This document shows positions 1 to 59,860 of a stretch of 64,000 nucleotides of DNA, one piece after another. The translations under genes and the position numbers were made by a program. The DNA is taken from the NCBI RefSeq assembly GCF_004010195.1, contig NC_057754.1, forward strand, positions 5,443,781 to 5,507,780. Reading direction: 5' to 3'. Below the pieces are notes generated by a model. The model worked only from the letters and a program-made list of their open reading frames with translations. It was not told the DNA's origin and made no database searches. The DNA comes from Chiloscyllium plagiosum (taxonomy: Eukaryota). How positions within the stretch are numbered: the stretch's first letter is position 1; every line of letters begins with the position of its first letter.

Positions 1-369
1 TGTGTGTGGAATGAACTTCCAGAGGAAGTGGTGCTTGTGGGTACAATTACAACTTTTAAAAGACATTTGGATAGCTACATGAATAGGAAAGGGTTTGGAG
101 GGATATTGGCCAGAAGCAGGCAGCTGGGACTAGTTTAGTTTGGGATCATGGTCGACACAGACTGGTTGGACAGGAATTCCTGATGAAGAGCGTATGCTCG
201 AAACATCGACTCTCCTGCTCCTTGGATTCTGCCTGACCAGCTGCGCTTTTCCAGCACCACAACTCTATTTAAGCCCATGTCTCTACAAACAGTAGGCAAC
301 ACACAGCAAACGGGTGAATGACTCACCAGTATCATTACATTGCACTGTTAGAACATACAACATACAGCA

Positions 370-2500
370 TTACAACGCAGTACAGGCACTTCGGCCCTCG
401 ATGCTGTGCCGACCTGTGAAACCGAGCTGAAGCCTACACTATTCCATTATCATCCATATGTTTATCCAATGACTGCAGTGCGTTCCACACCCCTACAAGT
501 CTCTGAATAAAGAATCTATCTTTGACATCTGTTCTATTATCTATCAGCCCTCAGTTTAAAACTATGTCCCCTCGTGCTAGCCATCACCATCTGAGGGAAA
601 AGGCTCTCATTGATAAACCATAAATAATCCTCTCATCATCTTGTATGTCTCTATTAAGTCACCTCTCAACCTTCTTCTCTAACAAAAACAGCCTCAAGTC
701 CCTCAGCCTTTCCTCATAAGATCCTCCCTCCATACCAGGCAACATCCTGCTAAATCTCCTCTGCACCCTTTCCAAAGCTTCCACATCCTTCCTATAATGC
801 AGCGACCAGAACTTTACGCAGTACTCCAAGTGCGGCCGCACCAGGGTTTTTTGCAGTTGCCACATGACCTCACGGCTCTGAAACTCAATCCCCCTACCAA
901 TAAAAGCTGACATAACTGTATGCCTTCTTAACAACCCTACCAATCTGGGTGGCAACTTTCAGAGATCTTTCTGCTAATCCACACTACTAAGAATCTTACT
1001 ATTAGCCCAGTACTCTGCATTCCTGTTATTCCTTCCAAAGTGAATCACTTCACACTTTTCCACATTAAACTCCAGCCCAGCTCTGCAGCTTATCTATGCT
1101 CCTCTGTAACCTACAACATCCTTCCACACTGTCCACAACTCCATCGGCTTTAGTGTCATCCAAAATTTACTAACCCATCCTTTTACACCCTCATCCAGGT
1201 CATTTATAAAAATGAAAAACAGCAGTGTCCCCAAAACAGATCCTTGCAGTACACCACTAGTAACTGAACTCCAGGATGAACATTTCCCATCAACCACCAT
1301 CCTCTGTCTTCTTTGAGCTCGCCAATTTCTGATCCAAATCGCTCTATCACCTTCAAGCCCAAACCTCTGTATTTTCTGCAACACCTTACTGAAATCCATA
1401 TACACCACATCAACCACTTTACCCTCATCCACCTGTTTGGTCACCTTCTCAAAGAATCTCAAAGGTTTCACCTTCACAAAACCATGTTGACTATCCCTAA
1501 TCAAATGATTCCTGTCTAGATGATTATAAATCCCATCTCTTATAATCCTTTTCAACACCTTACCCACAACCGGAGTAAGGCTCCCTGGTCTATAATTACC
1601 AGGGCTGTCTCTACTCCCCTTCTTGAACAAGGAGACAACATTTGCTACCCTCCAGTCTTCTGGCACTATTCCTGTAGACAATGACGACATAAAGATCAAA
1701 GCCAAGTGCTCTGCAATCTACTCCCTAGCTTCCCAGAGAATCCTAGGATAAATCCCATCTGGCCCAGGGGACTTATCTATTTTCACACTTTCCAGAACTA
1801 CTAACTCCTCCTCGTTATGAACCTCAATCCTGACTCGTCCAGTAGCCTGTTTCTCAGTATTCTCCTTTGCAACATTGTCTTTTCTCTCTGTGAATACTGA
1901 CAAAAAATATTCATTTAGCTCCTCTCCTATGTCTTCGAACTCCACGCACAACTTTCCATTACTGTCCTTGACAGGCCCTAATCTTACTCTAGTCATTCTT
2001 TTATTCCTGACATAGCTATAGAAGGCTTTAGGGTTTTTCTTGATCCTACCTTGCAAAAACTTCTCATGTCCTCTCCTGGCTCTTCTTAGCTCCCTCTTTA
2101 GGTCCAGCATGGCTAACTTGTAACACTCAAGCGCCCTGAGCCTTCACGCCTCATCTTTACATGAACCTCCTTCTTCCTCTTGACAAAATATTCAACTTCT
2201 TTAGTAAACACTGGTTCCCTCGCTCAACTACTTCCTCCCTGCCTGACAGGTACATACTTATCAAGGACACGCAGTAACTATCCCTGGATGCTCCACATTT
2301 CAGTTGTGCCCATTCCCTGCCGTTTCCTTTCCCATCCTATGCATCCTAAATCTTGCCTAATTTCATCCTAATTGCCTACCCCCCAGCTATAATCCTTGCC
2401 CTGTGGTATATATCTATTCCTCTCCATCGCTAAAGTAAACTTAACCGAATTGTGGTCACTATCACCAAACTGCTCACCTATCTCCAAATCTAATGCCTGT
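370..2500 (-). mobile_element. CR1/HER1-type LINE, degraded ORF2 (RT) and 3' UTR
   Basis: Translated motifs [36 protein letters not shown]; frameshifted. Confidence 0.9.
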
Positions 2501-2561
2501 TAAACATGCAAAACTACTCTTTCCTTTCCCCTGAATTTGACCCTGTCTTTGCCATTGACAG

Positions 2562-2716
2562 GTTCGGGAGGCGGAGTCTCCTGCTGTGGTCCCACTTCCA
2601 GATGGCAGTGTCGGGAACCTGCGCTGCGTTCTCCTCCTCCTATCCCTTGCTCTGCTTCTGGAGGTTTCTCTGTGGGATGGCAACATCGGGGCTGATCCTC
2701 AACGCTTTCTCCCTGC
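2562..2716 (+). CDS. SLC22 gene A exon 3 (155 nt): [51 protein letters not shown]
   Basis: acag| acceptor, |gtaagt donor; MFS FGRR motif. Confidence 0.93.
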
Positions 2717-5700
2717 GTAAGTGAAATGTGCTCCACATCGTGTCGGTGCCACATGGGCTCTCATCAGAGAACTCTCTAACGACGCCTTCAAACACACACC
2801 TATTCCCACCACCCATCCAGTAAAAGCAATAACAATATCCCCGAGGTGCTCACAGGCTTGCTGAGTACTAAAGCAGATCAAATCTTATTTTGGACGCCCT
2901 TGACTTAATTCAGCATTCTGTCTCTTTCTCTCTGTCCCTCACCAACTGTTCTCTCTGTGCAAAAGAAAGCAGGCAGCACGTCAATCTCAGTATCTTCGCT
3001 CATCTAAAGCTTCTATTCAAATAGCCTTCCAACTTGGCACTGCCCTCATGAAGGGCTTAGGCCCGAGACGTCGATTCTCCTGCTCCTCGGATGCTGCCTG
3101 ACCTGCTGTGCTTCTCCAGCACCACACACTCTCGACTCTGATCTCCAGCCTCCGCAGTCCTCACTTTCTCCTAAAGTTTCCCTTCAGACGAGCTATTAAC
3201 CGCCGCATGTGATCCTGACAGTGTCAGGCCATCCTTACTTCCTGAAATAGTCAAATCCCATTGTATGACTCGCTTGAGGGCCCTCTTGTGGTGCAGAGAC
3301 AGTGTCCCTCTCCCTGGACCAAGGGTTCAAGTCCCACCTGTTCCAGAGGTGTGTCATTAGGTTGCTGAGCAGGTTGGTTATAAAAATAGGTTAACAACAA
3401 AAATATATAAAGTTGTTTGATTTGAGCGACCAGATTCAATCTCCGATGGAGAAATGATTTTCAGAACATAGTGGTGCTTTACTTCTTGTTGAATCCGGAA
3501 GATTCTATCAAGGGGAGTGCACCTCTTGACAACCTTCTGGTGATGTACATCGGCTTCTCATCTTTGTAATTCACTTCCAAAGGATATCAGTGCAAACCAA
3601 GTAATATCCTTTGAGGAGGTGTTTTTGAGGGAATGAATCATACTGTCACCTGCACTTTAGAGTGAAAAATATAGTAAAATACTGTAAACTGCTTTCACTG
3701 TTGGTCATGAATAACAGACAAGGTCTTTTCCCTGGGGTGGGGGAGTCCAGAACTAAAGATTCAGGGTGAAAGGGGAAAGATATAAAAGGGACCTGAGGGG
3801 CAACTTTTTCACACAGAGGGTGGTGCGTGTGTGGAATGAGCTGCCAGAGGAAGTGGTGGAGGCTGGTACAATGACAACATTTAAAAGGCATCTGGATGGG
3901 TATGTGAATAGGAAGGGTTTAGAGGGATATGGGTCAAGTGCTGGCAAATGGGACTAGATTAGTTTAGGATATCTGGTCGGCATGAACGGGTTGGACTGAA
4001 GGGTCTGTTTCTGTGCTGTACATCTCTATGACACGATGACTATGATTCAGGCATCATTTTGAATAGTTTAGGAATAAATAAAACAAAAAGATACATTTGT
4101 TTTGCCGAGAACACAGGAGGTTGAGGAGGCAGCCTGACAGAGGTTTATAAGATTGTGAATGGCATGGATAGAGTGGAAAATAGAGGTTTTTTCCTAGGGT
4201 AGAGGAGTTAGTTACCAGGTTCAAGGTGTGGGGGAGGGGATGTTTCAAAGAGATGTGCGAGGCAAATTTTTCACACAAAGGGTGGTGAATGCCTGGAACG
4301 TGCTGCCAGAAGAGATGGTGGAAGCAGACACAATAGCAGCATTCAAGAAGCACCTGGGATAGGAAGGGAATAGAGGGATACGGATCCTGTGAGCAAAGAC
4401 AGTTTTAGTATGGATGGGCAAAATGTGTTGGTGCAGGCTTGGAGGGCCGAAGGACCGGTATTGTTATATAGTCATAGAGCCATACAGTACGGAAACAGAC
4501 CCTTCAGTTCAACCAGTCCATGTCAAACATAATCCCAAACTACATTAGTCGCACCTGCCTGTTCCTGACGAAGGAGCAGTGCTCTGAAAGCTTGATTTCA
4601 AATAAACCCGCTGGACTATAACCTGGTGTCATGTGACTTCTGACAATCTCTGATGTCAAAAATGGAAGAACTTTCAATTTGTGTCCGAGCCTCCCACCTC
4701 CTTTATAGGAGCAAATGCTATGAAAATCCATTCAATCCTGACTACTCACTTCTGACACCGTGCGTGTGAAAAATACTCACCATTAACACTTTTACTAAAA
4801 AAAGATTAGATTGCAAGTATTGCGAGCTACAATGGATTTCTCCCGAAGTTTCCTTTAAAAGTGAGAAGTGTGGTTATTGGCGAGTCAGAGTGGAGCAGGA
4901 AAAAGCACAGCAGGCCAAGCAGCATCAGAGGAGGAAGGGGATTTGACGTTTCAGGCTGGAACCTTTCATCTGTCCTGAAACATCGGCTGCCCTTCTCCTC
5001 TCCAATCTGATTCACTGTTTGTCAACTTCAGTAACGGCACAACCAGTGTCTTTAATTCAGTGCCCTGAATCCATTTTTGTCTTCCTTCTAGGGGTTGAAT
5101 GGATCCCAACAAGATTTCGAACCTCTGTTGAAATGATTAGTAATTACGTTTACACTACTGGTCAAATGACCCTGGCTGCTGTAGCTTACGGAATCCAACA
5201 CTGGCGCTGGATTCAGTTGACACTCTCTGTACCATTTTCCGTCTTCTTCTTTTATTCCTGGTAAAGTCAAAAATTATTGATCTCTTTTACGACCTGGAGA
5301 ACAAATGGTCTGTCAGTACATATTAGGGTAAGGTTAGATGGAATGCGGGAAAGGATAACTAGATGAAATGATGTGAGTGACAAGAACAAAGAACTTTTAG
5401 AAACCACGTACGGGGATTTTCTTAAAGCGCAAAAAGGTAGAACTTAGAAGTCATGCTTTCTGGTTGGTCTTCCACCAATATTTGGAAAAGGGGACGAGCG
5501 TGCTCAGAAATATTGAAAAGGCAAATGAATGACAAACAACATGGTGCAACAACATGAATGGTGTGGTGGCTCAGCGGTTAGCACTCCTGCCTCACATCCG
5601 TAGGGATCTGGGTTCAATTCTACTCTTGGGTGACTGTCTGTGTGGAGTTTGCCCGTTGACTGCGTGGGGTGTGCTCTGGTTTTTCTCCCACACTCTTAAA

Positions 5701-8700
5701 ACATAGGAGCAGAAATTTAGGCTATTCAGCCCATCGAGTATGCTCCACCATTCAATTGTGGCTGATAAGATTCTCAACCCCATTATCCCTTGACATTCAA
5801 GAACCTATCTATCTCAGTCTTAAACGTATTCAATGACCTGACCATTGCCTTCTGTGGCAATGAATTAAAATTTGTGTAGGTTAGGGTGGATTGGCCATGC
5901 TGGGATGTGCAGGCGAGGTGGGTTATGAGGTGTCCTCATTCCTGATGAATGGCTTTTGCCCGAAACGTCAATTTTCCTGCTCCTCGGATGCTGCCTGACC
6001 TGCTGTGCTTTTCCAGCACCACACTCTTGACTCTAATCTCCAGCATCTGCAGTCACCACTCTTGCCTAGGTGGGTTAGCCGTGGGGAACGCAGGGATAGG
6101 GAAGTGAGACGGGTCTGGGTGGGATGCTATTGGGAAGGTCGGTGTGGACTCAATCGCTGGAATGGCCTGCTTCCTCGCTGCAGGGATTCCATGATCCTAA
6201 GGAAAATAATGTGTTTGCATAGAAAACCAAGATATTAATTAGATTAGATTAGATTCCCTACAGTGTGGAAGCAGGCCCTTCAGCCCAACAAGTCCACACC
6301 GACCCTCCGAAGAGTAACCTACCCAGACCCATTCCCTATATTTACCCCTGACTAATGCACCTATCACTATGGGCAATTTAGCACGGCCAATTCACCTGAC
6401 CTGCACATCTTTGGACTCCACAATTAAGTTCAATAAGATCTTTTTGCGGACTCAGCTCCACTAACCCGTCCACTCACCCAAACCCTTGATTCATTTACTG
6501 TTCAAAAATCTATCTATCTTCGTCTTAAAAACATTTAATGAGGTTGCCTCACTGGGCAGAGAATTCCATACATTCGCAATCCTTTGGGTGAAGACATTCC
6601 TCCTCAACTCAGTCCTAAGTCTTCTCCTTCTTACTTTGAGATGCTATGTCCCCTACCTCTAGTTTCACATGCCAGTGGAAACAACCTCTCTGCTTCTGCT
6701 TTCTGTTCCCTTCATGTTTCTATGAGATCTCCCCTCGTTCTTATAAATTCCAATGAGTATGATCCCAGTCTACTCAATCTCTCCTCATACGCCAATCCTC
6801 TCAATTCCAGAATCAACCTGGTGAACCTCCTCTGCGCCAGTGCCAGTAGATTCTTTCTCAAGTAAGGAGACCAAAACTGTTCACAGTACTCCAGATATGG
6901 CCTCACCAGCACCCTGTAAAGCTGCAGAATGTGCTCCCTGTTTACAAACTCCATCTCTCTGGCAATGAAGGACAGTATTCCATTTACTAGAGGAACAATT
7001 TGTTATGAAGGACCACAGGGGAGTAGGGATAATGTGACTCCGTGGAGGTTAGAAAGCTTCTTTCGTTAGACAACTGTGACATCAAAGAACAAAGGTCAGC
7101 GAAAGCTACATCCTGGACATGCAGGTCTACAAAAGACAGAGGACAACTTGATCTGTGGAGAGATATGAGGCGAAGAGAAAGGAGGAACAAAAATGTTTTA
7201 ATGAGAAACTTCTATAGAGGGAAGCATTGACTTGTAAATTTCAGTGGTTTAATGTCAGAGTGACCTAGTGTTTAACGTTCAGTAGCAGAAACACTTCATT
7301 TTGAAAATGTTCAAGAAATGGAAATCATAAAAAAGCAGGAGACAGGTAGAAGGGGCTAAATTCTTGAAACCAAATCATAGAAACCCCTACAGTGTCTAGG
7401 GATGTGCAGGCAGGGTGAATTAGCCAAGGCTGAAAATGTGTTGCTGGAAAAGCGCAGCAGGTCAGGCAGCATCCAGGGAACAGGAGAATCGACGTTTCGG
7501 GCATAAGCCCTTCTTCAGGAATGAGGAAAGTTTGTCCAGCAGGCTAAGATAAAAGGTAGGGAGGAGGGACTTGGGGGAGGGGTGTCGGAAATGTGATAGG
7601 TGGAAAGAGGTCAAGGTGAGGGTGATAGGTCAGACTGGTGGAGTGGGGGGGGGAGTTGAAGTGTTGAGCCACAGGGTGGTTGGGTTGTTTGGTCCGGGTG
7701 TCCCAGAGGTGTTCTCTGAAACGCTCCGCAAGTAGCCGGCCTGTCTCCCCAATATAGAGGAGGCCACATCGGGTGCAGAGGATGCAATCGATGATGTGTG
7801 TGGAGGTGCAGGTGAATCTGTGGCGGATATGGAAGTTTGATTAGCCAAGGGAAATGCAGGGTTATAGGGTAGAATGATGTCTTTGGGTGGAATGCTCTTC
7901 AGAGAGTTGGTTTGGACTCAGTGGGGCAAAGGGCCTGTTTCCACCGCTCAGGGATTCTATGAAGTTAAGACCTAGGCAGCAGTGTTTTGGATGACCTCAA
8001 GTTTATGTGTGATACAACTTGGGGGTCCTGCCTAGAATGAGTTAAAATAATCAACTATAAAGATATGATGTGGAGGTGCCAGTGTTGGACTGGAGTGGAC
8101 AAAGTCAGGAATCACATGACACCACGTTATAGTGAATCAGGCTTATTAGATATCACAAGCTTTCGGAGCACTGCCCCTTCACCTGACAAAAGGGCTGCAT
8201 TCCAACAGTTTATGATTTCAAATAAATCTGTTGGACTAAAACCTGGTGTCATGTGACTTCTAACTAGAAAGACAACAGAAGTAACACTGAGAGATTCAGT
8301 GGCAGACTGGTTAAAAGTCTTGCTCATTAGAATTTAACCTCAAAACGTAAGATGAGCTAAAAATACATTCAAGTTGAAATTCATAGTTTTATTTTTAATT
8401 GCAGTATGGTTTGTGTCTCTCAGTATAATATAGTTTGTCGTAAAATGCACTCCTGAAAGCCCAGTGGGTGATGGGACAGGTATTGAACTAAGGAGGTCCT
8501 GGCTTTAATCGTCATCCTGTGTGAAATTATCCAGTCTCATCTGGGTCATGAGTAATAGTGCAACTATAATTAATCTTCATTTCCTTCAGATGGGAAGGGA
8601 AAGGATGTTTATTGCCACACTTGGTCAATTGAGCCCCACCAGAGTCATAGGGTCATAGAGATATACAGCACGGAAATAAGACCTTTTGGTCCAACTCGTC

Positions 8701-11700
8701 CATGCTGACCAGATACCCTAAATTAATGTAGTCCTATTTGCCAGCATTTGCCAGCATATCCCTCTAAACACTGACAATTCATGTAATTATCCAGATGCCT
8801 TTTAAATGTTGTCATTGAACCAGCCTCCACCGCTTCCTCTGGCAGCTCATTCCATACACGCACCACCCTCTGTGTGAAAAGGTTGCCTCTTAGGTCCCTC
8901 TCCTTAAATCTCTCCCCTCACACCGTATACCTATGCCCTCTAGTTATGGACTCCCCTAGCCTGGGGGAAAAGACCTTGACTATACACCCTATCCATGCCC
9001 CTGCCATAGGAAAGATGTTGTTAAACCTGAAATGGTACAGAAAAGATTTACAAGGATGTTGCTGGGGTTGGAGCATTTGAGCTGTAGGGAGAGGCTGAAT
9101 AGGCTGGGGCTGTTTTCCTGGAGCGTAGGAGGCTGAAGGGTGACATTATCGAGGTTTATAAAATCACGAGGGGCACGGATAGGATGAATAGTCAGGTCTT
9201 TTTCCCTCGGTAGGGGAGTCCAAACCCAGAGGGTATAGGTTTAGGATGAGAGGGGGAAGGTTTAAAAGGGACCTGAGGAGTAATGGTTTCACACAGAGGG
9301 TGGTGTGTGGTCATCTGGATGGGTATATGAATTGAAAGAGTTGAGAGGGATATGGGCCAGATGATGGCAAATGGGACTAGATTAATTTAGGATATCTGAA
9401 GAAGTAACAAAGAGGATGGATGAGGGCAGAGCAGTGGATGCGATCCAAATGGACTTCAGTAAGATGTTCAACAAGGTTCCCCATAGGAGACTGGTTAGCA
9501 AGGTTGGATCTCATGGAATAGAGGGAGAACTAGCCATTTGGATACAGAACTGGCTCAAAGGTAGAAGATAGAGGGTGGTGGTGGAAGGTTGCTTTTCAGA
9601 CTGGAGGCCTGTGACCAGTGGAGTGCCACAAGGATCGGTGCTGGGCCCTCTATTTTTTGTCATTTCTCTAAATGATTTTGATATGAACATAGCAGGGAGA
9701 TGTTAGTAAGTTTGCAGATGACACCAAAATTAGAGGTGTAGTGGACAGCGAAGAAGGTTACCTCAGAGTACAATGGGATCTTGATTAGATGAGCCAATGG
9801 GCTTAGCAGTGGCAGATGAAGTTTAATTTAGATAAATGCGAGGTGCTGCATTTTGGAAAAGCAAATCAGAGCAGGACTTAAAACCTTAATGGTAAGGTCC
9901 GAGGGAGTGTTGCTGAACAAAGAGACCTTGGAGTGTAGGTTCATTGTTCCTTGAAAGTTAAGTCACAGGTCGATAGGATATTGAAGCCTCCTTTATTGGT
10001 CAGCATATTGAGTATAGGAGTTGGGAGGTCATGTTGCAGCTGTACAGGGTATTGGTTAAGCCACTTTTGGAATACTACTTGCAATTCTGGTCTCCCTCCT
10101 ATCGGAAGGATGTTGTGAAACTTGAAAGAGTTCAGAAAAGATTTACAAGGACGTTGCCAGGGTTGGAGGGTTTGAGCTACAGGGAGAGGCTGAATAGGCT
10201 GGGACTGTTTTCCCTGGGGCGTCGGAGGCTGAAGTGTGATCTTATAGTGATATATAAAATCATGAGGGGCATGGATAGGGTAAATGGACATCCCTGGGAT
10301 GGGGATGTCCAGAAATAGAATGCATAGGTTTAGGGTTAGAGGGGAAAGTTATGAAAGGAATCTAAGTAGCAACATTGTCACACAGAGGGTGGTGTGTGTA
10401 TGGAACGAGTTACCAGAGGAAGTGGTGGAGGCTGGTGCAATTGCAGCATTTAAAAGGCATCTGGACTGGACATGAATAGGAAGGGTTTAGAAGGATATGG
10501 GCCAAGTGCTGGCAAATGGGACTAGATTAGGTTAGGATATCTGCTCGGCACGGACGAGTTTAACTGAAGGGTCTGTTTCCGTGCTGTCCATCAAACCAAT
10601 CTTAAAAAAAGCATCCCACCCAGACTCATTCCATCCCTGTATTTCCCATAGTTAATCCACCTCACCTATATATCGTTGGACTGTGGAAAGAAACCAGTGT
10701 ACCCAGCAGAAACCCACACAAACATGGGGAGATCATGCAAACTCCATACAGACAGTCACCCGAGGGTGGATTCGAACCTGGGTCCCTGGTGCTGTGAGGG
10801 AGCAGTACTAATGGCCGAGCCACCATACCACCCCACATTCAGTTGGTTCCAGAGGACTGAAAGTTAGGGATAAGATCATTGATCAAAGTTTGATCCTTTG
10901 GAGCTGAGCAATTTTGTCAGGTCTGTATTTAGATGAAATTAACTCGGAATTGATCTGAAGTACAGTACAGTTGTTCAGCTGTGGAACTCTACAGGATATA
11001 AATGTCGCTAAAGCTCTCTTTGCAATTAAATTGGAGGAAGAAAGTTCAACTCTAAATGGAATAGTTACCTATTTAACTTCTGGTGCAATCAAAGATTCAT
11101 AAACCCATACGAAACATGAAGAGGAGTAGGCCACTCAGCCCTTGAGTCTGCTCCGCCATTCAACAGGATCCGACATTCCTCACATCCACTTCCCTGTCCT
11201 TTTCCCCATAACCCTCGATTCCCCGACCGATCAAGAATCCATCTATCAGCCTTGAACATACACAAGGCCCACAATTCTCTGTGGCAAGGAGTCCCAACTC
11301 TCTGAGAGAGGAAACCCCTCCTTATCTCAGCCTTAAATTGTTGCCCCTCAATTCCGAGACTTTGCCCTCTGGTCCTGGACCTTCCCATCAGGGGGAACAT
11401 CCTCTCAGCATTGACCCTGTCAAGCCCCTTAAGAATCCTATACATTCCAATGAGACCGCCTCTCACTCTACTGAATGAATTAGCAATGAACCAGCTCAGA
11501 CCTGTCCACTTGTGCCAGAACCTTCATGATTGAAGGCATCAACTGAGGATAGAATAAAGTCTTCCTGGGATTCTCTCGTAACTGGCATTCCAATCAATGC
11601 TCAGAAATGAAGATCATTACTCTGTCATTTGTACACACCACTGCTGAAGTAAACTTCCTAACTCCAGGAAGGTTTGGCGAAGGAGGGATAATGGAAATAA

Positions 11701-14700
11701 AGGAGAAGTGTTGTTGAGTGATGAGAATGGCTCCTGCCTTGTTATTGCAATGATGTTTAGCTATCAATTAAAGTAGCTCCAGTGCTATGGTGTCCACTTA
11801 TATCACCTAGAATTACTTGAGAGAATGTTTTACCGTGGAGGTAATAATCCCTGGGTATGTGTGTGTGGTCCTTGTCACAAGGTGGTTGCCAGAATCTGCT
11901 CGTTGGCTCATTCTGAACGACAAGGCTGACGTCGCTCTAGAACAGCTCAGGAGGGTAGCCAAGACAAACGGCAAGGAGGTTAAAGGGAAAGAACTCACTC
12001 TCGAAGTAAGTGATGACGTCACACACGATGTTTTACGCGGAGTACAAGAACTCACTACTCTTTGCAATTCTGACACATGTAGAGGTACAGAGGGTGGCAG
12101 GGTGCAGAGAAGCAGCCAATGTGGCTGACAATTAAGACTTAACACACAGACCCCCGAGCTCAGGAAGCTGGGGATTGTCAGAGACTGGAGAGTAATAAGG
12201 ATGAGAGAAAGAGGGAAGGCAAAACAGAGAAAAACATAACTATCACCGACCCTATTACAAGAAGAGATCCAAACAGGAGACAAGTGGAAAAGTTATCCAA
12301 AGTGCTTCCATAATCATACAATCCCTACAATGTGGAATTAGGCCATTTGGCCCATTGAGTCGACACTGACCCTCCAAAGGACATCCCACAAGAGCAGCCC
12401 CATCCCCCTACCCTATCCCTGCATTTCCCATGGCCAATCCACCCTAACCTGCACATCCCTGGACACTATAGGGCAATTTAGCACGGCCAATCCACCCTAA
12501 CCTGCACATCACTGGGCACTATGGGACAATTTAGCACGGCCAACCCACCCTAACCTGCACATCACTGGATACTATGGGACAATTTAGCACGGCCAATCCA
12601 CCCTAACCTGCACATCTCTGGGCACTATGGGACAATTTAGCACGGCCAATCCACCCTAACCTGCACATCCCTGGGCACTATGGGACAATTTAGCACGGCC
12701 AATCCACCCTAACCTGCACATCACTGGACACTATGGGACAATTTAGCACGGCCAATCCACCCTAACCTGCACATCACTGGACACTATGGGACAATTTAGC
12801 ACGGCCAATCCACCCTAACCTGCACATCCCTGGGCACTATGGGACAATTTAGCACGGCCAATCCACCCTAACCTGCACATCTCTGGGCACTATGAGACAA
12901 TTTAGCACGGCCAATCTACCCTAACCTGCACATCCCTGGGAACTATGGGACAGTTTAGCACGGCCAATCCACCCTGACCTGCACATCTCTGGACACTATA
13001 GGACAATTTAGCAAGGCCAATCCACCCTGACCTTACATCTCTGGACACTGGGACAATTTAGTATGGCCAATCCACCCGAACCTGCACATCCCTGGGCACT
13101 ATGGGACAATTAGCATAGCCAATCCACCCTAACCTACACATCCCTGGCCAGGATGGAGCAATTCAGCATGGCCAATCCATCTTAACCTACACATCCCTGG
13201 ACACTATAGATTAGATTACTTTACTTTTTTAGATTACTTTACAGTGTGGAAACAGGCCGTTCGGCCCAACAAGTCCACACCGACCCGCCGAAGCGTAACC
13301 CACCCATACCCCTACATTTACCCCTTACCTAACACTACGGGCAATTTAGCATGGCCAATTCACCTGACCTGCACATCTTTGTACTGTGGGAGGAAACCGG
13401 AGCACCCGGAGGAAACCCACGCAGACACGGGGAGAACGTGCAAACTCCACACAGTCAGTCGCCTGAGGCGGGAATTGAACCCGGGTCTCAGGCGCTGTGA
13501 GGCAGCAGTGCTAACCACTGTGCCACCGTGCCGCCCTCTTATGGGACAATTTAGCACGGCCATTCCACCCTAACCTGCACACGGGGCAGCATGGTGGGTC
13601 AGTGGTTAGCACTGCTGCCTCACAGCACCAGGGTCCCAGGATTGATTCCAGCCTCGGGTGACTGTCTGCACATTCTGCCCGTGTCTGTGTGGGTTTCCTC
13701 CGGGTGCTCCGGTTTCCTCCCACACTCCAAAGATGTGCAGGTCAGGTTAATTGGCTGTCCTAAACTGCCCATAGTGCTACGTGCATTAGTCAGAGGGAAA
13801 ATTAGTCTAGGTGGGTTACTCTTCGGAGGGTCGGTGTGAACTAGTTGGGCTGAAGAGCCTGTTTCCACACTGTAGGGAATCTAATCTAATCTAATCCCTG
13901 TACTCTATGGGACAATTTAGCATGGCCAATCCACCCTCATCTGCACATCTTTGGACTCTGGGAGGAAACCAGACCACGCCCACCCACAGCCAGACAGACA
14001 CGGGGAGAATGTGCAGTCACCTGAGGCTGGAATCGAACCTGGGTTCCTGGCGCCGAGAGGCATTGCAGGATTTTCCCAGAAATTCCAGCCATAAGACTGA
14101 TACCTGTAGCACTGACAGTCTGCTCAGTCATGACCAAAGATCAGGACAGCTTCCAGGAAATCATGTCTAAAGAAATAGTGACCATCGAATGTTCTCAATA
14201 GCTGGACAGATAAATTCAGTCTTTCCCAAGACATGGGGTAAATGATTTTTTATCTCAAAGAAAATTATTATTTCAGTGTAATTTGATTTGATTTGCTTTG
14301 CTTTATTTATTGCCACGTGTATTTTGTTACAAAACACAGTGAAAAGTGTTGCATAGTGTTGCCGCTCTCCAGTGCCATCTTAAACCACAGAAAAGTAAAC
14401 TGAAACATAGAATATAAAGGGGAAAAAACTAAAAGAATAGTGTCCAATTTTACAGTCCTTCTTGTTAAGGGCTCGGTCATGGGCCGTGGGCCTGCTGGCC
14501 AGGCACAAGTCCCCTTCGCCACGCCACCACTGGAACGAAGGCCGTCACTCTTCAGCACCATCTTGCGTTCACCGACCCACTCATCACTGTTAGTCTTCAC
14601 TGGATCTCACCAATGTAGATGCCACCAGATACCACACCGGCCCAAATTCAGCCAGCGCCATGTGTCTGCTTTGGGCCCACCTCACTGATATAGCAGCTGC

Positions 14701-42146: not shown

Positions 42147-42333
42147 GAACATTCTATTCGCTGATGGTTTCGGGTAGGCACGGTGGCTCAGTATTTAGCA
42201 CTGCTGCCTCAGCACCGGGGGCCCACGTTTGATTCCATCCTTGGGTGCCTGTCTGTGTGGGGTTTGCACGTTCTCCCTGTGCCTGTGTGAGGTTTCCTCC
42301 GGGTGCTCCGGTTTCCTCCCACAGTGGACTGGC

Positions 42334-47980: not shown

Positions 47981-48439
47981 ATGTTCCAGTATACAGTGAA
48001 AATTATTGTTTTGGGTGCTATCCTACCTTACATAATTACATCAGGGCAATGGAACAGAATGCAGTAAATAGTGTTACAGCTCCAGTGAAGGTGCAGAGAA
48101 AGAACAATTCTCATATAGGAGAGGTCCATTCAGAAGTCTGATAACAGCGGAGAAGAAGCTGTTTATGAACCTGTTGGTACGTGCTTTCAAACATTTGTAC
48201 CTTCTGCCCGACAGAAGAGAGTGGCAGAGATTATAACTGGGGGGCGAGGGGTCTTTGATGACGTCAGCTGCCTTCCCGAGGCATTGGGAAGTGTAGATGG
48301 GGTCAGTGGAAGGAAAGGTGGTCTTCGTGATGGACTGGGCTATCTTCACAACTCTCTGTAGTTTCTTGCGGTCTCGGGCAGAGCAGTTGCCAAATCATGC
48401 ATCTGGATCGATGAGATGTCCTTTGTGTGGCTTATCTGT

Positions 48440-50090
48440 TTATGATAGAAGACAGAGGATAATGGTAGAGGGTTGCTTTTCAGACTGCAGGCCTACGATC
48501 AGAGATGTTCCTCAGGGAACAGTACTGAGTCCACTTTTGATTGTCATTTATATAAATGATTTGGATGAGAATATAGGAGGTATGGTTAGTAAGATTTCAG
48601 ATGATACTAAGATTGGTGGTGTAGTAGATAATGAAGAAGGTTATCTAATGTTACAAAGAGATCTTGATCAACCTTGGAGTGCAGGTTCATAGCTCCTTGA
48701 AAGTGGAGTCGCAGGTAGATAGGATAGTGAAGAAAGCGTTTGGTATGCTTTCCTTTATCGGTCAGAGTACTGAGTACAGGTGTTGGGAGGTCATATTGCG
48801 GCTGTACAGGACATTGGTTAGGCCACTGTTGGAATATTGCGTGCAATTCTGATCTCCTTCCTATCAGAAAGATGTTGTGAAACTTGAAAGGGTTCAGAAA
48901 AGATTTACAAGGATGTTGCCAGGTTTGGAGGGTTTGAGCTACAGGGAGAGACTGAATAGGCTGGGGCTGTTTTCCCTGGTGCGTCGGAGGCTGAGGGGTG
49001 ACCTTATAGAGCTTTACAAAATTATGAGGGGCATTGATAGGGTAAATAGGCAAAGTCTTTTCCCTGGGGTCGGGAAGTCCAGAACTAGAGGGCATAGGTA
49101 TAGGGTAAGAGGGGAAAAATATAAAAGAGACCTAAAGGGCAACTTTTTCACACAGAAAGTGGTACATGTATGGAATGAGCTGCCAGAGGAAGTGGTGGAG
49201 GATGTTATAATTGCATAATTTAAGAGGCATTTGGATGGATATATGAATAGGAAGGATTTGGAGGGATATGGACCGGGTGCTGGCAGATGGGACTAGATTG
49301 GCTTGGGATATCTGGTCGGCATGGATGTGTTGGACCGAAGGGTCTGTTTCCATGCTGTACATCTCTATGACTCTATAATTGGGTCAATGGACTGAGGAGT
49401 GACAGACGGAGTTTAATTTGGATAAATGTGAGGTATTGCATTTTGGTAAAACAAACAAGGAAAGGACTTGTACACTTAATGGTAGAGCCCTGTGTAGTTT
49501 TGTTGAACACAGAGACCAGGGGGTTCAGGTACATAATTCTTTGAAATTTGTTTCACAGGTAGACAGGGTGGTTAAGAAGGCATGTGGCACACTTGTTTTT
49601 AACGCTCAAACCTTTGAGTATAGAAGTTGGGACGTCATGTTGGGGTTGTACAGGACATTGGTGAGGCCTCGTCTGGATCACTGTGTCCAGTTCTGGTCGC
49701 CCTATTACGGGAAGGATATTATTAAACTGGAGAGGGTTCAGAAGAGATTGACCAGGATGTTGCTGGGAATGGAGGGTTTGGGTTATAAAAATAGACTGGG
49801 ACATTTTTCACTGAAGGAGGTTGGGAGGTGACCTTACTGAGGTTTATAAAATCATGAGAGGAATAGATAAGGTGAATGACAAGGCTCTTTTCCCTAGGAT
49901 AAGGGAGTTCAAAACTAGAGGGCACAGTTTTAAGGTGAGAGGAGAAAGATTTTAAAAAGACATTAAGAGGCAACTTTTTTTTACACAGGGAGTGATAATG
50001 TGTGGAATGAATTGCCAGAGAAAGTGATGGATGTAGGTACAGTTACAGCGCTTAAAATACATTTGCACAAGTACATGACTATGTAAAGGC
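48440..50090 (+). mobile_element. CR1 fragment with a second CR1 3' part nested at ~48671-49376
   Basis: Two successive RPLLEYC/RPRLDHC...WNELPE segments. Confidence 0.85.
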
Positions 50091-50903
50091 TTAGATTAGA
50101 TTTGATTACTTAGTGTGGAAACTGGCCCTTCAGCCGAACAAGTCCACACCAACCCTCAAAGAGCAACCCACCCAGACCCATTCCCCTACACCTGACACTC
50201 CGGGCAGTTTAGCATGGCCAATTCACCTAACCTGCACATCTTTGGACTGTGGGAGGAAACCGGAGCACCCGGAGGAAACGCACGCAGACACGGGGAGAAC
50301 GTGCAAACTCCATATAGACAGCTGCCCGAGGCGGGAATTGAACCCAGGTCGCTGCTGCTGTGAGGCAGCAGTGCTAACCACTGTGCCACCGTGCTGTTTA
50401 GAGGGGTATGGGCCAAGCACGGGCAATTAACACTCCACTCATACCATTTGTACTTATCCTTCGATACTCTCAATAACCGGGAAATATCTTGTCATTATCG
50501 CTCCACCTATAAATTCTGTGCTTATGACCTTTCCTCCACTTCACTTGGTGAAGGAACAGCACTCCAAAGCTTCCGAACTTGAATAAACCTGTTGGACTAT
50601 TACCTGGTGTCGTGTAACTTCTGAAAATGTCCTGCAGGGAAGGAAACTGCCACCCTTACCTGGTCTGGCCTTACACGTGACTGCGGACCCATGTGGTTGA
50701 CTCTGGGCAATTAGGGATGCTGCCTAGCCAGTGATCCCCTCAACCCATGAATGAATAAAGGATAAAAAAAAATGGTCTGCAGAATAGCCTCACAGGTTTG
50801 TTTCTTGACACTCCTTCAATTTCAAGGTCCAGCACATTTGCAAAATATTCCAGTTACTGTGAATACTGTCAAATCCCTGTCAGTATGATTCCTGTTTTAA
50901 CGG

Positions 50904-51007
50904 TGGGACCTAGTGTGCAACCAGAAGTCCTTGAAACAGATGGCACAGTCTATCTACATGGCTGGTTTGATGATCGGAGCCCTGGTACTGGGGAGGCTTC
51001 CTGACAT
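50904..51007 (+). pseudogene. SLC22 paralog B exon 2 (104 nt, [34 protein letters not shown]); acceptor reads GG, not AG
   Basis: WDLVC motif, canonical 104-nt size, donor gtaaga intact, preceded by ttttaacgg. Confidence 0.87.
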
Positions 51008-51206
51008 GTAAGAGAAGTTCATTGAATGATACAAAGAGTTTATCTTCCAAGACTGAATCCAAGGCCACTTCTGCGGTACTGTGTCCAGTTCAGGCCACCC
51101 AGTTATAGGAAGGATATTATTGAGCTGGAGAGGGTTCAGAAGAGATTTACCAGGACGTTGCCAGGTATGGAAGGTGTGACTTCTAAAGGAAGGCTGGATA
51201 GGCTGG

Positions 51207-51413
51207 ATTTGGAGATGCCGGTGCTGGACTGGGGTGTACAAAGTTAAAAATCACACAACACCAGGTTATAGTCCAACAGGTTTAATTGGAAGCACACTAG
51301 CTTTCGGAGCGCCGCTCCGACAATCACCTGATGAAGGAGCGACGCTCCGGAAGCTAGTGTGCTTCCAATTAAACCTGTTGGACGATAACCTGGTGTTGTG
51401 TGATTTTTAACTA
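51207..51413. mobile_element. Penelope-like family B terminus in inverted-repeat configuration, inserted in CR1
   Basis: Arms ~51246-51318 and ~51336-51410 are reverse complements; TSD gataggctgg at 51197-51206 and 51414-51423. Confidence 0.8.
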
Positions 51414-52534
51414 GATAGGCTGGGACTTTTTTCACTGGAGCCTAGGGGTTTGAGAGGTGACTAGATAGAAATTTATAAAATCATGAGAAGTATACATTGA
51501 GTTAATGGAACTGTCTTTACCTCAAGATGGGGAATATCAAAGCTAGGAGGAGTGGAGAAAGATTTTAGAAAACCATAAGAGACAGATGCTTTATACAGGG
51601 GGTGTTTTGCATGTGGAAGTGGTGGATGTGGGTACAGTTACAATGTTTAAAAGAAATATTGATGGATACATGAACGGGAAAGGTTTGGAGTTTATGGGCC
51701 AGGCAGGTAGGACTGGTTTAGTTTGGAATTATGTTCAGCATGGACTGGTCGGACTGAAGGGTCTGTTTCTATGCTCAAAGACTTGGAATCATATGAGAAG
51801 ACAACTTCGATGTTAAGTAAAGATTATGCTTGCTAAATGTTTACTGAAGAAAAGAATGTTCAGATTGGTTAGGATGTGTTATAACAATCGATCCTATCCA
51901 CAAATAAAACGCACGATAGAGGTCTGGGTGGTAATTGGGGGTATTATGAATTTGGAGCTTCCCTTGGGCTCAGTGCCACAGGTCTAGGTTGTAACTGGAG
52001 TTTCAACTGCAGTCCTGAACCACATGTAGCAGTGTTTCTTTCAAATTAATTAAATGATTTGGATGAAGGAACTTAAGTTTGTTGATGGCACAAACATAGA
52101 TCGAAGGGTCGCCAGGTTCGTGGAAAGGAGTTGGTTGTACAAGGCTATTTTTGCCCAGGTCTTTAAGTGCCTTAATGTTGAACTTTTTGCAGCACTTCTT
52201 CTGTTGTCTCCATTGCAGTGGAGATACACTTATGTTGATCCTGGCTCGGATCAGGTGACTGTCCATCCAGCAAGCGTCAGCTCCTATCCCATGGCACGAG
52301 TGATTTTAACGTCTGTCTGAACCCTCGCTCTGACGATGATATAGTCGAGGTTGCCAGTTGCTTGGATCGCGGGTGCTGCCGCAGTGCCCCAGTGGTTAGC
52401 ACTGCTGCCTCCCGACACCAGGAACCCAGGTTCAATTCCACCCTCGGGCAACTGACTGTGTGGAGTTTGCACTTTCTCCCCGTGTCTGCATGGGGTTTCT
52501 CTGGGTACTCTGGTTTCCTCCCACAGTCCAAAAA

Positions 52535-53003
52535 TGTACAGGTTAGGGTGGAATGATCATGGGAAATTGCCCCATAATCTCCAAGGATGTGCAGGTTAGG
52601 GTGGATTGGCCGTGCTATATTGTCGCATAGTGCCCAGGGACGTGCAGATAAGGGTGGATTGGCCGTGCTAAATTGCCCCATAGTGCCCAGGGATGTGCAG
52701 GTTAGGGTGGGTTGACCGTGCTAAATTGCCCCATAGGGCCCAGGGATGTGCAGGTTTGGGTGGATTGGCCATGCTAAATTGACCCATAGTGTCCAGGGAT
52801 GTTCAGGTTAGGTGGATTGGCCATGCTAAATTGACCCATAGTGCCCAGGGATGTGCAGGTTAGAGTGGGTTGGCCATGCTAAATTATCCCATAGTGCCCA
52901 GGGATGTGCAGGTTTGGGTGGATTGGCTGTGCCAAATTGTCCCATAGTGTCCAGGGATGTGTAGGTTAGGGTGGATTGGCCGTGCTAAATTGTCCCATAG
53001 TGT
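52535..53003. repeat. HE1-internal 53-bp minisatellite (G-rich strand on +)
   Basis: Same unit, reversed. Confidence 0.92.
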
Positions 53004-53565
53004 TAGGTGCATTAGTCAGAGGGAAATGAGTCTGGGTGGGTTACTCTTCGGAGGGTCGGTGTGAACATGTTGGGCTGTTTCCACACTGTAGGGAATCTAA
53101 TCTCATTCCCTATTCATGTACTTATCTAAATGTGTTTTAAACATTATAATTATATACATATCCACCAATTCCTTAAGTTCATTCCATACTCGAACCACCC
53201 TCTGTATAAACAACTTGTCCCTCATCTCCTTTTTAAATCTCTCCTCTCACCTTAAAAATGTGCCCCCCACGTATTGAAATTCCCCACCCTAGGGAAAAGA
53301 CACCTTTTGAGTAAATTGTGTTTTGTTAACGTCGAGCAGTTTGACCAATCGAATTGCATCTGGAACACAGCATCTGGCATTTACTTTTGAAATAAGAAAA
53401 AGTTAAGGTCTTGTTTTGAGGGGTTCCGGTCTGGTCCATAACAAGAGCCTTAATCTTTTGCCTCGATGGGCACACTAACAATGTCCAAGAGAAGGAAACT
53501 AGGTAACGAGAGAGAAGTGACATATTTCTGAATCACTGTCTGTTCTGTCATGCTTTTACTTTCAG

Positions 53566-53659
53566 AGCAAGACAACACGTTGGAAAAGACAAAGAGTTGA
53601 TGAGGGATGAGATTCCACTGCAGGAGACAAATGCATCACTGACAAATCAGACTGTTTAA
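53566..53659 (+). pseudogene. SLC22 paralog exon 10 (ARQHVGKDKELMRDEIPLQETNASLTNQTV*)
   Basis: tttcag| acceptor; same length (94 nt) and clear similarity to 29811-29904. Confidence 0.8.
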
Positions 53660-56194
53660 ACCAACAAATCTAACTATCATCCAATTCCGAGCAGCAACAC
53701 AATGGGAGACCCTCTTTACTATATATCCAGCTGGACACAGAACACCATGTTGTGTACAACCATCTGATGAAGGAGCAGCACTCTGAAAGCTAGTCCTTCC
53801 AAATAAACCTGTTGGACTATAACCTGGTGTTGTGTGATTTTTAACTTCGTACACCCCAGTCCAACACCGACATTTCCAAATCATCCTTTAACTGGGTTTG
53901 TCTTTGTATCAGTAGGGATTACAATCAAAAGAGATTGGGTTGAAATCATAGACATTAATTAGGTCACTATGTGTATAATTTTACACTGTTAAAGCTAATG
54001 TGTTATTAATAAATTACTAATTCTTTCGTTAAAACTATAAACTTTGTGTCTGGTATAAATCTGGATTTTGGTTATTCAAAAAATCTGGTTTCGAACCACC
54101 GGGGACAATTTTGAGGGTCATTGAATGTATTAATTTTACTGTGTTGCAAAGACAGGGATAGGGAGGCTTTGATTTGCCTGTCTTCATGTCATAACACTAG
54201 TCATTTAGTTTAAGTCAAATGATTTCTTGGGAAATACTGTTTTGACCCAGTGATAAGAAAGAAACAAGTCACCCTCGTGGAACTGAAAACTAAAAGTCCA
54301 CTTAATTTTACTTCAGACTTCAAGTTCCCAAATAATATCGTAAACCTTCATCACAATGTGGTAAGTGAAATTTCTTGCCATGTGTTCCAGAATGCAGTTG
54401 CGACAAATGACAATTAACAGAACGTACATCATAATTTTCACTGATTGCATGTTAAATAGAATTGTACCATTGTTTATTTATAGATTTCTCTTGTCTATTA
54501 CAAAGGACAAGTAAAATATATTAAACTATTAATCCATCCATCTTCAATCACTCTCACTTTCAACTCAATTACCAATTAGGAATGTGGTATAATTACTACA
54601 GGATGCAGCTAACAAGTCAAAAGGACATTCTGCCAATCAGATAAATGAGTAATGTGATATATGAATGTAATGCCAGGTCTGTAGACCATGTATCCTGCAT
54701 GTCCCTGTAGCAGTTTGCGACAAGGGAAGATACTAACCATATCAAATTCTAAAAATAAATAGTTTAAATGTCATATAAAACATTTTTGTAACCTTTGATA
54801 AAGGTGTCTTTGTTGGTTCAAGAATACCATATAAAACATCTGTAAGGAAATAAAACATACTGTGTGCTTTAGTCAATAGAATAAACCTGCTAACAATGTC
54901 CTTCAGATAATTTGTTCCTCTCACACTGCAGATATAAATACTGAAAACCACTAGCAATATGCATAACAGTGTCTAACATTAGATGTGATCCTGCCATTGG
55001 ACATTTGTTGGATAATCATGAATGTGCAAGGAATTACTCTGACAACCAACTTAGGATTGTCAGTCAGGCTCTCAGTGTGATGCACCTGCTTGTATCGGAA
55101 GCTACATGTATTAATGTGTATATTCTGGAACCATAAGTCAATGCTATGATTGGTGTGTCATTACCGGTTTGGGTCTGCCACATACATTGGGAGGCAGCAG
55201 CCCTTCCTTCAGTCAGACCCCAGTGCCTTTACATGAAAAGTACACGTGCACGTGCGTTTACTCAGGCCTTGGGAAAGTGACATAGGGAAAGGGCTCAACT
55301 CAAATCTCCCAAGCCAACAATAAAAATCCAGTCTAATGTCTTGATCAGTGTCTTCTTCCTCACACATGCCCGTAGTTTGCTCTTCTGGTATGATCCTTTC
55401 TGGAGGATCATTATGTCCAGTATCAGAGCAATATGTTCTTGTTTCCATTCCTTCAGCTGGTGTGTTTGTTCACTAGGCCTTCCTCTGCCAAACCCTGGTG
55501 CCCAGCTGATGCCAGGAGCCTGACTCCCCTTTTCACAGAACCAGTGAAGCCCTACAGTGAAGAAGCAGCCATCCCGAGTAAGGCAAAGGAACTCTGGACT
55601 GACAGGGAATCATAGAATCAGTTTATAATCATAGAATCCCTACAGTGTGGAAACACGCCCTTCAGCCTAATAAGTCCACAGTGACCCTCCAAAGAGTGTT
55701 TTACCCAAAACCATCCCCCTACCCTATTACTCCACATTTACCCCGGACTAATGCACTTAACATACACATCCCTGGGCACTATGGGGCAATTTACCACGGC
55801 CAATCCACCCTAACCTGCAAATTTTTGGATTGTGGGAGAAAATCCACTCAGTCACGGGGAGAATGTGCAAACTCCACACAGACAGTCACCTGAGGGTGGG
55901 ATTGAACCCGGGTCCCTGCGTTGTGAGGCAGCAGTGCTAACCACTGAGCCACTGTGCCACCCAGGAAATCAAAAATCAAGGCAATAAACCCTTCTGTTTC
56001 ATCCAGGGCCCTGAACGTGGAGAGTTTCCGAATACATCTGCCCCAGCTCTTCAACACAGCTGCCTCGCAGCACCAAGGACCCAGGTGTGACTCCACCCTC
56101 AGGCAATCGTCTGTGTGGAGTTTGCACGCTCCCCCCGTGTCTGTATGGGTTTCCTCCGAGTGCTCCAGTTTCCTCCCACAGCACAAAAAGATAT

Positions 56195-56430
56195 GCAGCT
56201 TAGGGTGGATTGGCTGTGCTAGATTGTCCCATAGTGTCCAGGGATGTGCAGGTTAGGGTGGATTGGCTGTGCTAGATTGTCCCATAGTGTCCAGGGATGT
56301 GTAGGTTAGGGTAGATTGGCCGTGCTAAATTGTCCCATAGTGCCCAGGGATGTGCAGGTTAGGGTGGATTGGCCGTGCTAAATTACCCATAATGCCCAGG
56401 GATGTGCAGATTAGGGTGGATTGGCCATGG
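56195..56430. repeat. HE1-internal 53-bp minisatellite (~4 units)
   Basis: Same unit, reversed. Confidence 0.9.
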
Positions 56431-58139: not shown

Positions 58140-58554
58140 CTGAAGGAGGCAGAAGAGCACCACGGGTTAAAAATGAAGACTCCCAACTCACCTAGCCATG
58201 CGCTGAGAGGACAGCTATAGTAAACGCTTCAAAGCGAATGGCTAATCCATCAAAATTGTTTTGAACAGGTAGGCCAGGCTCAACTAAGTTATTCCGATTT
58301 GTACACTATTAAATAACCTGTGTGAGGTGGGAGCTTCCCGTTATTATTAACTCCTCTGCCAACACTTAACTCTGATGCCATCTGTCACAAGCAGCAAACA
58401 CATATGTGGCTTTGTCAAGCAGGTTTCTGAAGTATTGCTCTGCTGTTATTTTGATTTTGATAGAAATATATACACTATCTCTCGCTTTCAAGAAATAATA
58501 ACTAATTTATCAACAGCAGAAACCAATACAGTGTTCTATTTACCAACAGTGTTA

Positions 58555-59210
58555 GAGGTCTGCAGCATGGAAACAGGCCCTTCGGCCCAACTTGTCTATG
58601 TTGCCCAGTTTTCATAATTAAGCTAGTCCAATTTGCCTGTGTTTGGTCCATATCCCTCCATACCTATCCCATCCATGTACCTAAGTGTTTCTTAAATGAT
58701 AAAATTGTACTCGCTTCCACCACTATCGCTGGCAGCCCTGTTCCAGACACTCACCACCCTCAGTGTGAAAAAATTACTCTTTTGAGTCTCTCCCCTCTCT
58801 CCTTAAACCTACGCCCTCCAGTTTTAGACTCCCCTATCACAGGGAAAAGCTGCTGGCTATTTACCTTATCTATACCTCTCATGATTTTATAAACCCCTAT
58901 AAGGTCACCACCCACCCCCGTCTCCTACGCTCCTAGGAAACAAGTCCCAGCCTTCCCTTATAACTCAACCCTTCCAGACCAAATAGCATCCTAGTAAATC
59001 TTCTCTCCACTTTTTCACATTTAATAATACCCTTTCTGGATTAGGGCATCCAGAACTCCAAGTGTGGCCTCACCAACATCTCGTACAGCTGCAACAAGAT
59101 GTCCCAACCCCTTCACTTAATGCTCTGACCGATGAAAGCTAGCACACCCTGTCCACCTGTGACTCCACTTTCAAGGAACAATGCCGTGCGCCCCTAGACT
59201 CCTTCGTTCT
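58555..59210 (-). mobile_element. CR1 3' fragment in an MRPL49 intron
   Basis: Family similarity. Confidence 0.8.
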
Positions 59211-59621
59211 AAAACACTCGAGTTAGAAAATGATACCTGAGCGACGAATTCCGCAGATGGATACCTCTCAAGCATACAAAATATATCTTGATGATGAGCA
59301 CCAAAGACCTGTATCACAACCCCTTTTCTTCACATGCATGTGCCCTTTGGCTAAGCCCATAAAAAGAATGATCTCAAAGTTCACAGGCAAAACAAAATCG
59401 TGGAACAGCAAGCTTCAAGCAAGCCTGAGTAAAGCTGATGCAAAAGGATAAAGAGACTCTGAGCGCAGTGCAATGTAAATGCAAGGGAAGCATTGTCTCA
59501 TATGGTAAAATTCCTCAATAAAATGCAGGAATGGAAACGCAGGATCCTTAGAAGCAGAACTGCAGACAAAAATGATTGAGAACACCAACAAAGAACAACA
59601 GTGGGTTATATTTACAGGGAC

Positions 59622-59860
59622 TAGGAGAAAGTGAGGACTGCAGATGCTGGAGATCAGAGTCAAAATGTGTGGCACTGGAAAAGCACAGCCGGTCAGGCAG
59701 CATCCGAGGAGCAGGAGAGTCGACGTTTTGAACATACGCTCTTCATCAGGAAAATGAAAAGCTCTTCCTGATGAAGGGCTTATGCTCAAAACATGGACTC
59801 TCCTGCTTCTCGGATGCTGCCTGACCGGCTGTGCTTTTCCAGCGCCACACTTTTTGACTC
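59622..59860. mobile_element. Penelope-like family A terminus, head-to-head inverted pair
   Basis: 59655-59752 is the approximate reverse complement of 59765-59860. Confidence 0.82.

Follow-up and report, generated by a model that had tools for sequence, protein, structure and literature searches.

A 64,000-nt stretch of the shark Chiloscyllium plagiosum genome (contig NC_057754.1, positions 5,443,781 to 5,507,780, hereafter the window) contains, on both strands, many short sequences that resemble minimal hammerhead ribozymes, which raises the question of what these sequences are, whether any of them could still cleave and how they came to be inserted. We conclude that they are very probably the pseudo-long terminal repeat (pLTR) ends of a shark Penelope-like retroelement with the known minimal type I hammerhead at its head, that a cut is to be predicted only in the master RNA, and that the copies in the window are mostly decayed and likely inert. 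Copies are named here by their coordinates in the window, and family A denotes those with ACGU as stem III.

A profile search found 11 copies, of family A or close to it, in which a hammerhead portion can be recognised, these same 11 being its training set, and one further decayed copy at 61807-61877 (minus strand). A motif copy is present at each position and strand cited in an earlier inspection of the letters (the sequence-only reading), which had not cited a copy of a related subfamily at 62496-62577 (minus strand). The copies and the host gene are as follows.

7430 to 7838, minus strand: 5'-truncated Penelope-like element with GIY-YIG remnant, pLTR, hammerhead and short 3' end; 11-bp target-site duplication
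7637 to 7834, minus strand: remnant of a GIY-YIG endonuclease, YIG being preceded by two cysteines; the remaining open reading frame (ORF) gone after an apparent internal deletion (Pfam PF01541 and protein identity)
7487 to 7522, minus strand: minimal type I hammerhead with unaltered core and stem II; a U-U mismatch interrupts stem I; predicted cut at 7491/7490 (descriptor)
26191 to 26286, minus strand: solo short copy, antisense within a host intron; hammerhead fully intact at 26251-26286, with 4 bp in stem I; target-site duplication of 13 bp
176 to 268, plus strand: solo copy with GAGC/GCUC as stem II and a CpG change that disrupts stem III; preceded by a remnant, a few bases long, of an inverted partner
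3044 to 3173, plus strand: long-tail copy beginning at the core, G5 and A14 changed
4888 to 4975, minus strand: copy of a diverged subfamily, its core absent or altered in the 5' part
5933 to 6067, plus strand: long-tail copy, intact core, broken pairs 10.1-11.1 and 2.1-1.1; a candidate 10-bp duplication ends 16 nt upstream of the core
20213 to 20315, plus strand: copy of a diverged subfamily with a stem II of 5 bp; changes at CpG sites have removed G12 and stem III
38644 to 38779, minus strand: solo copy with a long tail, changes at A13 and 11.1, and a target-site duplication of 16 bp
59622 to 59752, minus strand: left arm of an inverted pair (head-to-head), long tail, stem II pair 2 A-U, G12 lost
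59765 to 59861, plus strand: right arm of the same pair, with a short end, G-U as pair 2 of stem II, and G12 lost
62496 to 62647, minus strand: related subfamily copy retaining upstream pLTR sequence
2557 to 29901, plus strand: host SLC22A6-like gene, limits of the matched exons, gene start before the window

A descriptor modelled on the published minimal-hammerhead consensus, with at least three pairs in stem II and at least two in stem I, gave five matches in the window: two in family A (C3 at 7518 and 26282, both on the minus strand) and three in a second family, family B, described below. In 200 dinucleotide shuffles the mean was 0.005 matches per window, or 0.055 without the demand on stem I, with a maximum of one; a sixth match at 23307, with a 1-bp stem I, is unrelated. 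Just 2 of the 11 family-A copies pass the descriptor, in agreement with the proposal that only the 7486 and 26251 copies are intact. The pattern CUGA-N-GA...GAAACGUC, which the sequence-only reading had described as recurrent, is represented by a motif copy everywhere cited, but in its complete form it is missing from most copies. Core CUGANGA(H)...GAAA and NUH cut site are complete in the 7486, 26251 and 5937 copies and substituted in the remaining eight. Stem III had been given as the palindrome ACGU; this is intact in 7 of the 11 copies, while the other four are altered at CpG, and the palindromic 15.2-16.2 without a loop III is what characterizes the minimal hammerheads of Penelope-like elements. 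Stem II reads GAGC/GCUC at 188-191/196-199 and GGGUC/GACCC in the 20213-20250 copy, both as noted earlier. Stem I is a perfect 4 bp in the 26251 copy alone; in the 7486 copy a U-U mismatch separates two pairs from a third. An exact 20-nt pattern had no match in viral contigs and 17 in metagenome contigs, none of the 17 belonging to family A. The repeated motifs are confirmed as genuine minimal hammerhead copies of an already known type.

Their position at Penelope-like termini is borne out by three features: a GIY-YIG remnant, a head-to-head inverted pair, and target-site duplications that reveal two 3' end points separated by about 37 nt. The remnant lies about 115 nt upstream of the 7486 copy on the same strand; its match to Pfam PF01541 (E=0.0046) is below the curated cut-off, and over 66 amino acids it is 83% and 79% identical to the Chiloscyllium punctatum proteins P0001 and P0002, respectively. 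In the relatives P0026 and P0031 a reverse transcriptase (RT) domain, PF00078, is located upstream of the matching endonuclease (EN), of which the window itself holds the EN part only. The closest longer relative, P0002, has the CX2-5CxxC linker described as a mark of Neptune/Nematis elements (PMC8557442), and from these proteins we consider the element likely to be of the Neptune type.

Direct repeats of 10-16 bp, which represent target-site duplications, flank four of the nine unpaired copies, compared to 119 of 2000 random windows (~6%); the least certain is that of the 5937 copy, which ends 16 nt from the core. The duplications set the 3' ends at +89/+92 or +126/+129 from C3, and these two end points correspond to the 30-40 bp optional tail of Penelope-like elements. 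The inverted pair (59656-59861) consists of 97-nt arms, 92% complementary and joined head to head, of which one is long-tailed and the other is not. The optional tail, inverted truncated copies and target-site duplications are traits of EN+ Penelope-like elements, and the ORF-linked copy and the short copies share one stem II sequence. We also observed that in the long-tail copies [5972-6056(+), 3043, 38740, 59752, and 61807-61877] a hairpin is predicted between GGAUGCUG in the body and tail; short ends lie inside this predicted hairpin and long ends just 3' of it.

The sequence-only reading had further claimed covariation. For stem II the pairing is real: 93% of cells are paired and the covariation score, although inflated by the relatedness of the copies, exceeded those of all 500 shuffles and all slid controls. 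Stem II is closed by G10.1-C11.1 and three of its four pairs have changes on both sides, which reduce to about two credible, inherited subfamily events. One is the change of pair 2 from G-C to A-U in the 175 and 59752 copies (G-U in 59765), counted once because other changes are common to both copies; the second affects pair 4, which is C-G elsewhere but U-A in the two diverged copies at 20213 and 62551. The A-U at 10.1-11.1 in the 4944 copy was rejected as covariation since one side is a CpG change. The claim did not extend well to stem I, for which covariation is poor. Among the variant rows listed for the contigs described below, the hammerhead variants fall at three places in loop II and one in stem I, a listing that gives no measure of core or stem II invariance.

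In the eight close copies (the three diverged ones being left out), non-CpG changes number 3/80 in the core and 22/360 in the flank (P=0.59), with 12/64 at CpG sites. The core is therefore not protected after insertion and is no better kept than the flank, and most copies in the window are likely dead. The nearest same-strand copies are 2.5 kb apart, the two intact copies are 18.8 kb apart, and the window contains no tandem hammerhead array. The inverted pair places its two hammerheads on opposite strands. With same-strand spacing of at least 2.5 kb and this opposite-strand arrangement, cis-dimers are unlikely in the window.

How the copies begin was addressed with contigs of three runs (three organisms) aligned to 7400-7880 at 80% likeness (71,147, 87,399, and 16,207 contigs). 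The ratio of summed depth over the hammerhead and tail to that over the upstream pLTR was 6.3, 11.9, and 19.9; with the ORF remnant as the reference it was 13, 9, and 19. Relative to unique flank it was ~2-3 x 10^5 in two runs, a value that is not a copy number but whose order agrees with eight close copies per 64 kb. Among the loose-end rows listed (18 of 1399, six per run), the best-supported 5'-side end in all three runs was 7522 (382, 353, and 104 contigs), with near-random sequence beyond, and base 7522 is the first base of stem I; the predicted cut at 7491/7490 was not among the same rows. Loose ends on the 3' side at 7429-7438 were not used as element ends, as the sequence continues there into the tail. 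In these contigs short copies outnumber longer ones 6- to 20-fold and tend to start at the first base of stem I instead of the cleavage site. Seven of the eight close copies in the window start no more than 9 nt from C3, and window junctions overall range from ~9 nt upstream of C3 to within the core. No report of this shark family, or of copy starts at stem I, was found in the literature searched, most subscription journals and Repbase being outside that search.

The boundary base, an A, sits in TCATTC, which occurs at 0.15% of window positions and which we take to be an initiator consensus, and a conserved TTTATC is found 29-31 nt upstream in both long A-type copies. This setting, in few copies, suggests run-off cDNAs from uncleaved RNA. 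An ACGT at +28 was considered as a downstream promoter element and rejected, since its spacing and flanks do not fit the published RGACGTGY motif (PMC2377424). In both long copies TTTATC [7540-7555(-) and 62593-62608(-)] is followed by a pyrimidine tract and AG, and this region may alternatively be a splice acceptor, comparable to that of the pLTR intron of Drosophila Penelope.

Several results weigh against the readings given above. An Rfam search with E up to 5 returned 12 matches, no hammerhead family among them and only hairpin-type chance matches. P0001 is without the full CX2-5CxxC motif and the linker region lies outside the window, so that the clade assignment is no more than likely. 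In stem I only 61% of cells are paired and pair 2.3-1.3 fails in 8 of 11 copies, some of these cells being flank letters of truncated copies, and in the three runs the A that would perfect stem I contributes 6%, 0.3%, and 33% of the contig depth. Folding z-scores (0.12 to -0.98) were no better than shuffles and predicted dimers bypass the ACGU duplex; we gave this little weight as the folding models omit core contacts. With regard to the 5' ends, the loose-end positions depend on the reference and represent the best 18 of 1399 rows. Depth also drops within the hammerhead, from 24.5 to 14.9 million in X7, which implies that some copies end earlier or belong to diverged subfamilies.

As a tentative explanation for the short copies, we propose that transcription may start at the first base of stem I and that internal priming ~90 or 130 nt downstream may give a strong-stop-like short cDNA that is inserted directly, either alone or, when both target strands act as primers, as a head-to-head pair. 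The element's endonuclease would nick the target and reverse transcription would begin inside the RNA, ~90 or 130 nt downstream of the hammerhead. There is an in vitro precedent in the lizard element PAc (Poseidon, Anolis carolinensis; Frangieh et al., 2024), for which reverse transcription is reported from two sites 111-118 nt into the ORF, with extension of both target strands, a hammerhead that cuts only with protein, and hammerhead mutants that still insert (PMC11167929). Most cDNAs would stop at the first base of stem I, and their insertion would leave short solo copies with an uncut hammerhead; with less weight, we suggest that this end would be the RNA 5' end, at an initiator-like transcription start. 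The ribozyme in the master RNA would cut after GUC slowly, as a dimer or aided by element protein. Two 3' ends, uncut hammerheads and inverted pairs make the shark copies fit the PAc mechanism. By the accounts of Drosophila Penelope, its start precedes the hammerhead by ~120 nt, with an intron in between (PMC2377424, PMC4209133), and a start at stem I would consequently not be universal.

If this proposal is true, it explains solo hammerhead copies on the order of 10^5 per genome, all from uncut RNA, and the ribozyme would be a switch that removes the RNA 5' end, not the maker of the insertion template. Should the copy starts mark the transcription start, cleaved RNA would be ruled out as the main template and in vitro internal priming would be tied to genome structure. 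So abundant a family is also a large natural sample of insertion ends.

The ATTC boundary might instead be set by DNA chemistry, either an endonuclease cut at ATT or microhomology with AT-rich targets, and this is possible, if doubtful. The lizard endonuclease is reported to favour 5'-ATT-3' close to the junction of its own ORF and pLTR (PMC11167929), a published proposal explains inverted junctions by self-priming on an antisense template (PMC3846280), the target duplication of the 26251 copy overlaps the first A, and the window junctions are scattered from ~9 nt upstream of C3 into the core. A boundary set in this way does not account for the A belonging to the initiator-like TCATTC with the conserved TTTATC 29-31 nt upstream, nor for family B, which has TATAAA 30-32 nt upstream of two apparent short-copy starts and no ATT there. 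A rather unlikely origin of the short copies is a SINE-like or retrozyme-like family that is non-autonomous, has a short master RNA of its own and relies on Penelope protein for amplification, in which case they would not be by-products of full-length RNA. Their 6- to 20-fold prevalence and their own target-site duplications agree with this, as do head-to-tail junctions between 87-96 nt units, seen in a few contigs (4 and 1 in X7, 1 in X15), and a 2026 preprint that derives animal retrozymes, one chondrichthyan included, from pLTRs (bioRxiv 10.64898/2026.07.22.740005). However, the depth of the tandem joints corresponds to one or two loci, the window has no tandem array of the hammerhead unit, the short and ORF-linked copies have their stem II sequence in common, and both halves of stem I are kept around an uncut site, unlike in a cleavage-defined unit.

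The motif could also be a relic, kept as a promoter or protein-binding signal in master elements that no longer cleave. The weak stem I of the dominant form would be expected from this, and in the available accounts the lizard hammerhead mutants left in vitro insertion unaffected and no RNA ends were seen at the cut site (PMC11167929), while 8/9 Xenopus retrozyme dimers were uncleaved (bioRxiv 10.64898/2026.07.22.740005). Yet core and stem II pairing are preserved, with compensatory changes, across diverged subfamilies and family B, and a 2-bp stem I occurs among published minimal hammerheads (PMC4209133); we consider a relic unlikely. Finally, 7 of the 11 copies are situated within introns of the SLC22A6-like gene or just upstream of its first matched exon. 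Since these introns hold the two intact copies, one of them might have been adopted as a regulator of the host gene, but both are antisense to it, all four sense copies are broken, and the core has no sign of selection, making adoption highly improbable. The orientation bias itself is not significant (intact, 2/3 antisense versus 0/4 sense, P=0.14).

The proteins encoded in the window mark it as shark DNA: most exons of the SLC22A6-like gene are 91-99% identical to a C. punctatum protein, and two match less well. A second SLC22A6-like paralog, at 41745-53656 (plus strand), is represented by exon 1 (41745-42146), exon 2 (50901-51005) and one match resembling a last exon (53564-53656) only; its middle exons were not found by tblastn, and the cause may be a deletion, a pseudogene or a misassembly.

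Family B, the second Penelope-type hammerhead family, has AGCU as stem III and comprises eight copies, including two head-to-head pairs and the three descriptor matches:

4565, plus strand: family B copy
8053 to 8265: family B pair
34293 to 34444, minus strand: family B copy
50541 to 50632, plus strand: family B copy
51199 to 51416: family B pair
53747 to 53896, plus strand: family B copy

In two long family B copies TATAAA is 37-40 nt before the core; it is 30-32 nt upstream of two apparent short-copy starts, and two other short copies start closer to the core. At 62244-62536 a 49-nt unit is present six times in tandem; it originates from the region downstream of the 62551 hammerhead and lacks the hammerhead itself, and a lone CUGAUGA follows at ~62199-62219 (minus strand). 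Seven arrays of a 53-54 nt unit of a short interspersed element (SINE), presumably HE1-like, occur at 12432-13207, 24552-25117, 28802-29521, 42326-42826, 52534-53003, 56190-56426, and 60351-60841. A near-perfect inverted repeat at 19068-19345 (130-nt arms, 95% complementary) derives from a LINE-like 3' piece and has spurious Rfam miRNA matches, and a 10-base assembly gap (34627-34636) separates two inverted SINE pieces.

A hammerhead in a Penelope-like element is in itself ordinary, its kind having been described in 2014, when minimal hammerhead ribozymes (min-HHRs) were reported in the pLTRs of metazoan Penelope-like elements (Cervera and De la Pena, 2014, PMC4209133). The shark motif agrees with these in CUGANGA with one extra base, G10.1-C11.1, GAAA and the zero-loop palindromic stem III (PMC4209133, Fig. 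S3), as well as in the NUH cut site, short stem I, location 3' of the EN domain, and mostly solo occurrence with opposite-strand pairs (PMC4209133). In the min-HHR list the entries for Nematostella (two motifs) and Culex likewise read CUGA(U/A)GAA...GAAACGUC (PMC4209133). The same authors noted low dimer activity, widespread solo copies and opposite-strand pairs (PMC4209133), and dimer cleavage is reported as slow or protein-assisted (PMC4209133, PMC11167929). The shark family differs in that cartilaginous fish are absent from Table S1 and Fig. S3 of that paper (PMC4209133), in a stem II of 4 bp, the short end of the range, and in the internal mismatch of its dominant stem I. Its copy density is above the 4,000-9,000 motifs given for coelacanth and Xenopus, although the latter counts are descriptor hits only (PMC4209133).

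With the Neptune clade (Craig et al., 2021) the shark element shares the C-terminal GIY-YIG, the cysteines before YIG and, in P0002, CX2-5CxxC (PMC8557442), along with 5' truncation, inverted copies and the 30-40 bp tail (PMC8557442); as the shark RT and linker are outside the window, this likeness rests on relatives' proteins. The non-LTR retrozymes of animals are similar in being short, pLTR-derived units with a type I hammerhead that occur as monomers too, and the preprint describing them reports cleavage for 1/9 Xenopus dimers (bioRxiv 10.64898/2026.07.22.740005). Retrozymes are tandem units, each with a complete hammerhead, whereas the window has solos and inverted pairs only; two or more consecutive tandem units with complete hammerheads, by which a retrozyme is recognized, do not occur in it, and tandem joints elsewhere in the contigs are rare. 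PAc belongs to the Poseidon clade, in contrast to the Neptune/Nematis linker seen in the relative of the shark element, and the available part of the PAc paper describes no pile-up of copy starts at stem I (PMC11167929). PAc and the shark element are nevertheless alike in a hammerhead near the pLTR-ORF junction, in two 3' end points ~100 nt downstream that define the tail, and in insertion from uncleaved RNA (PMC11167929).

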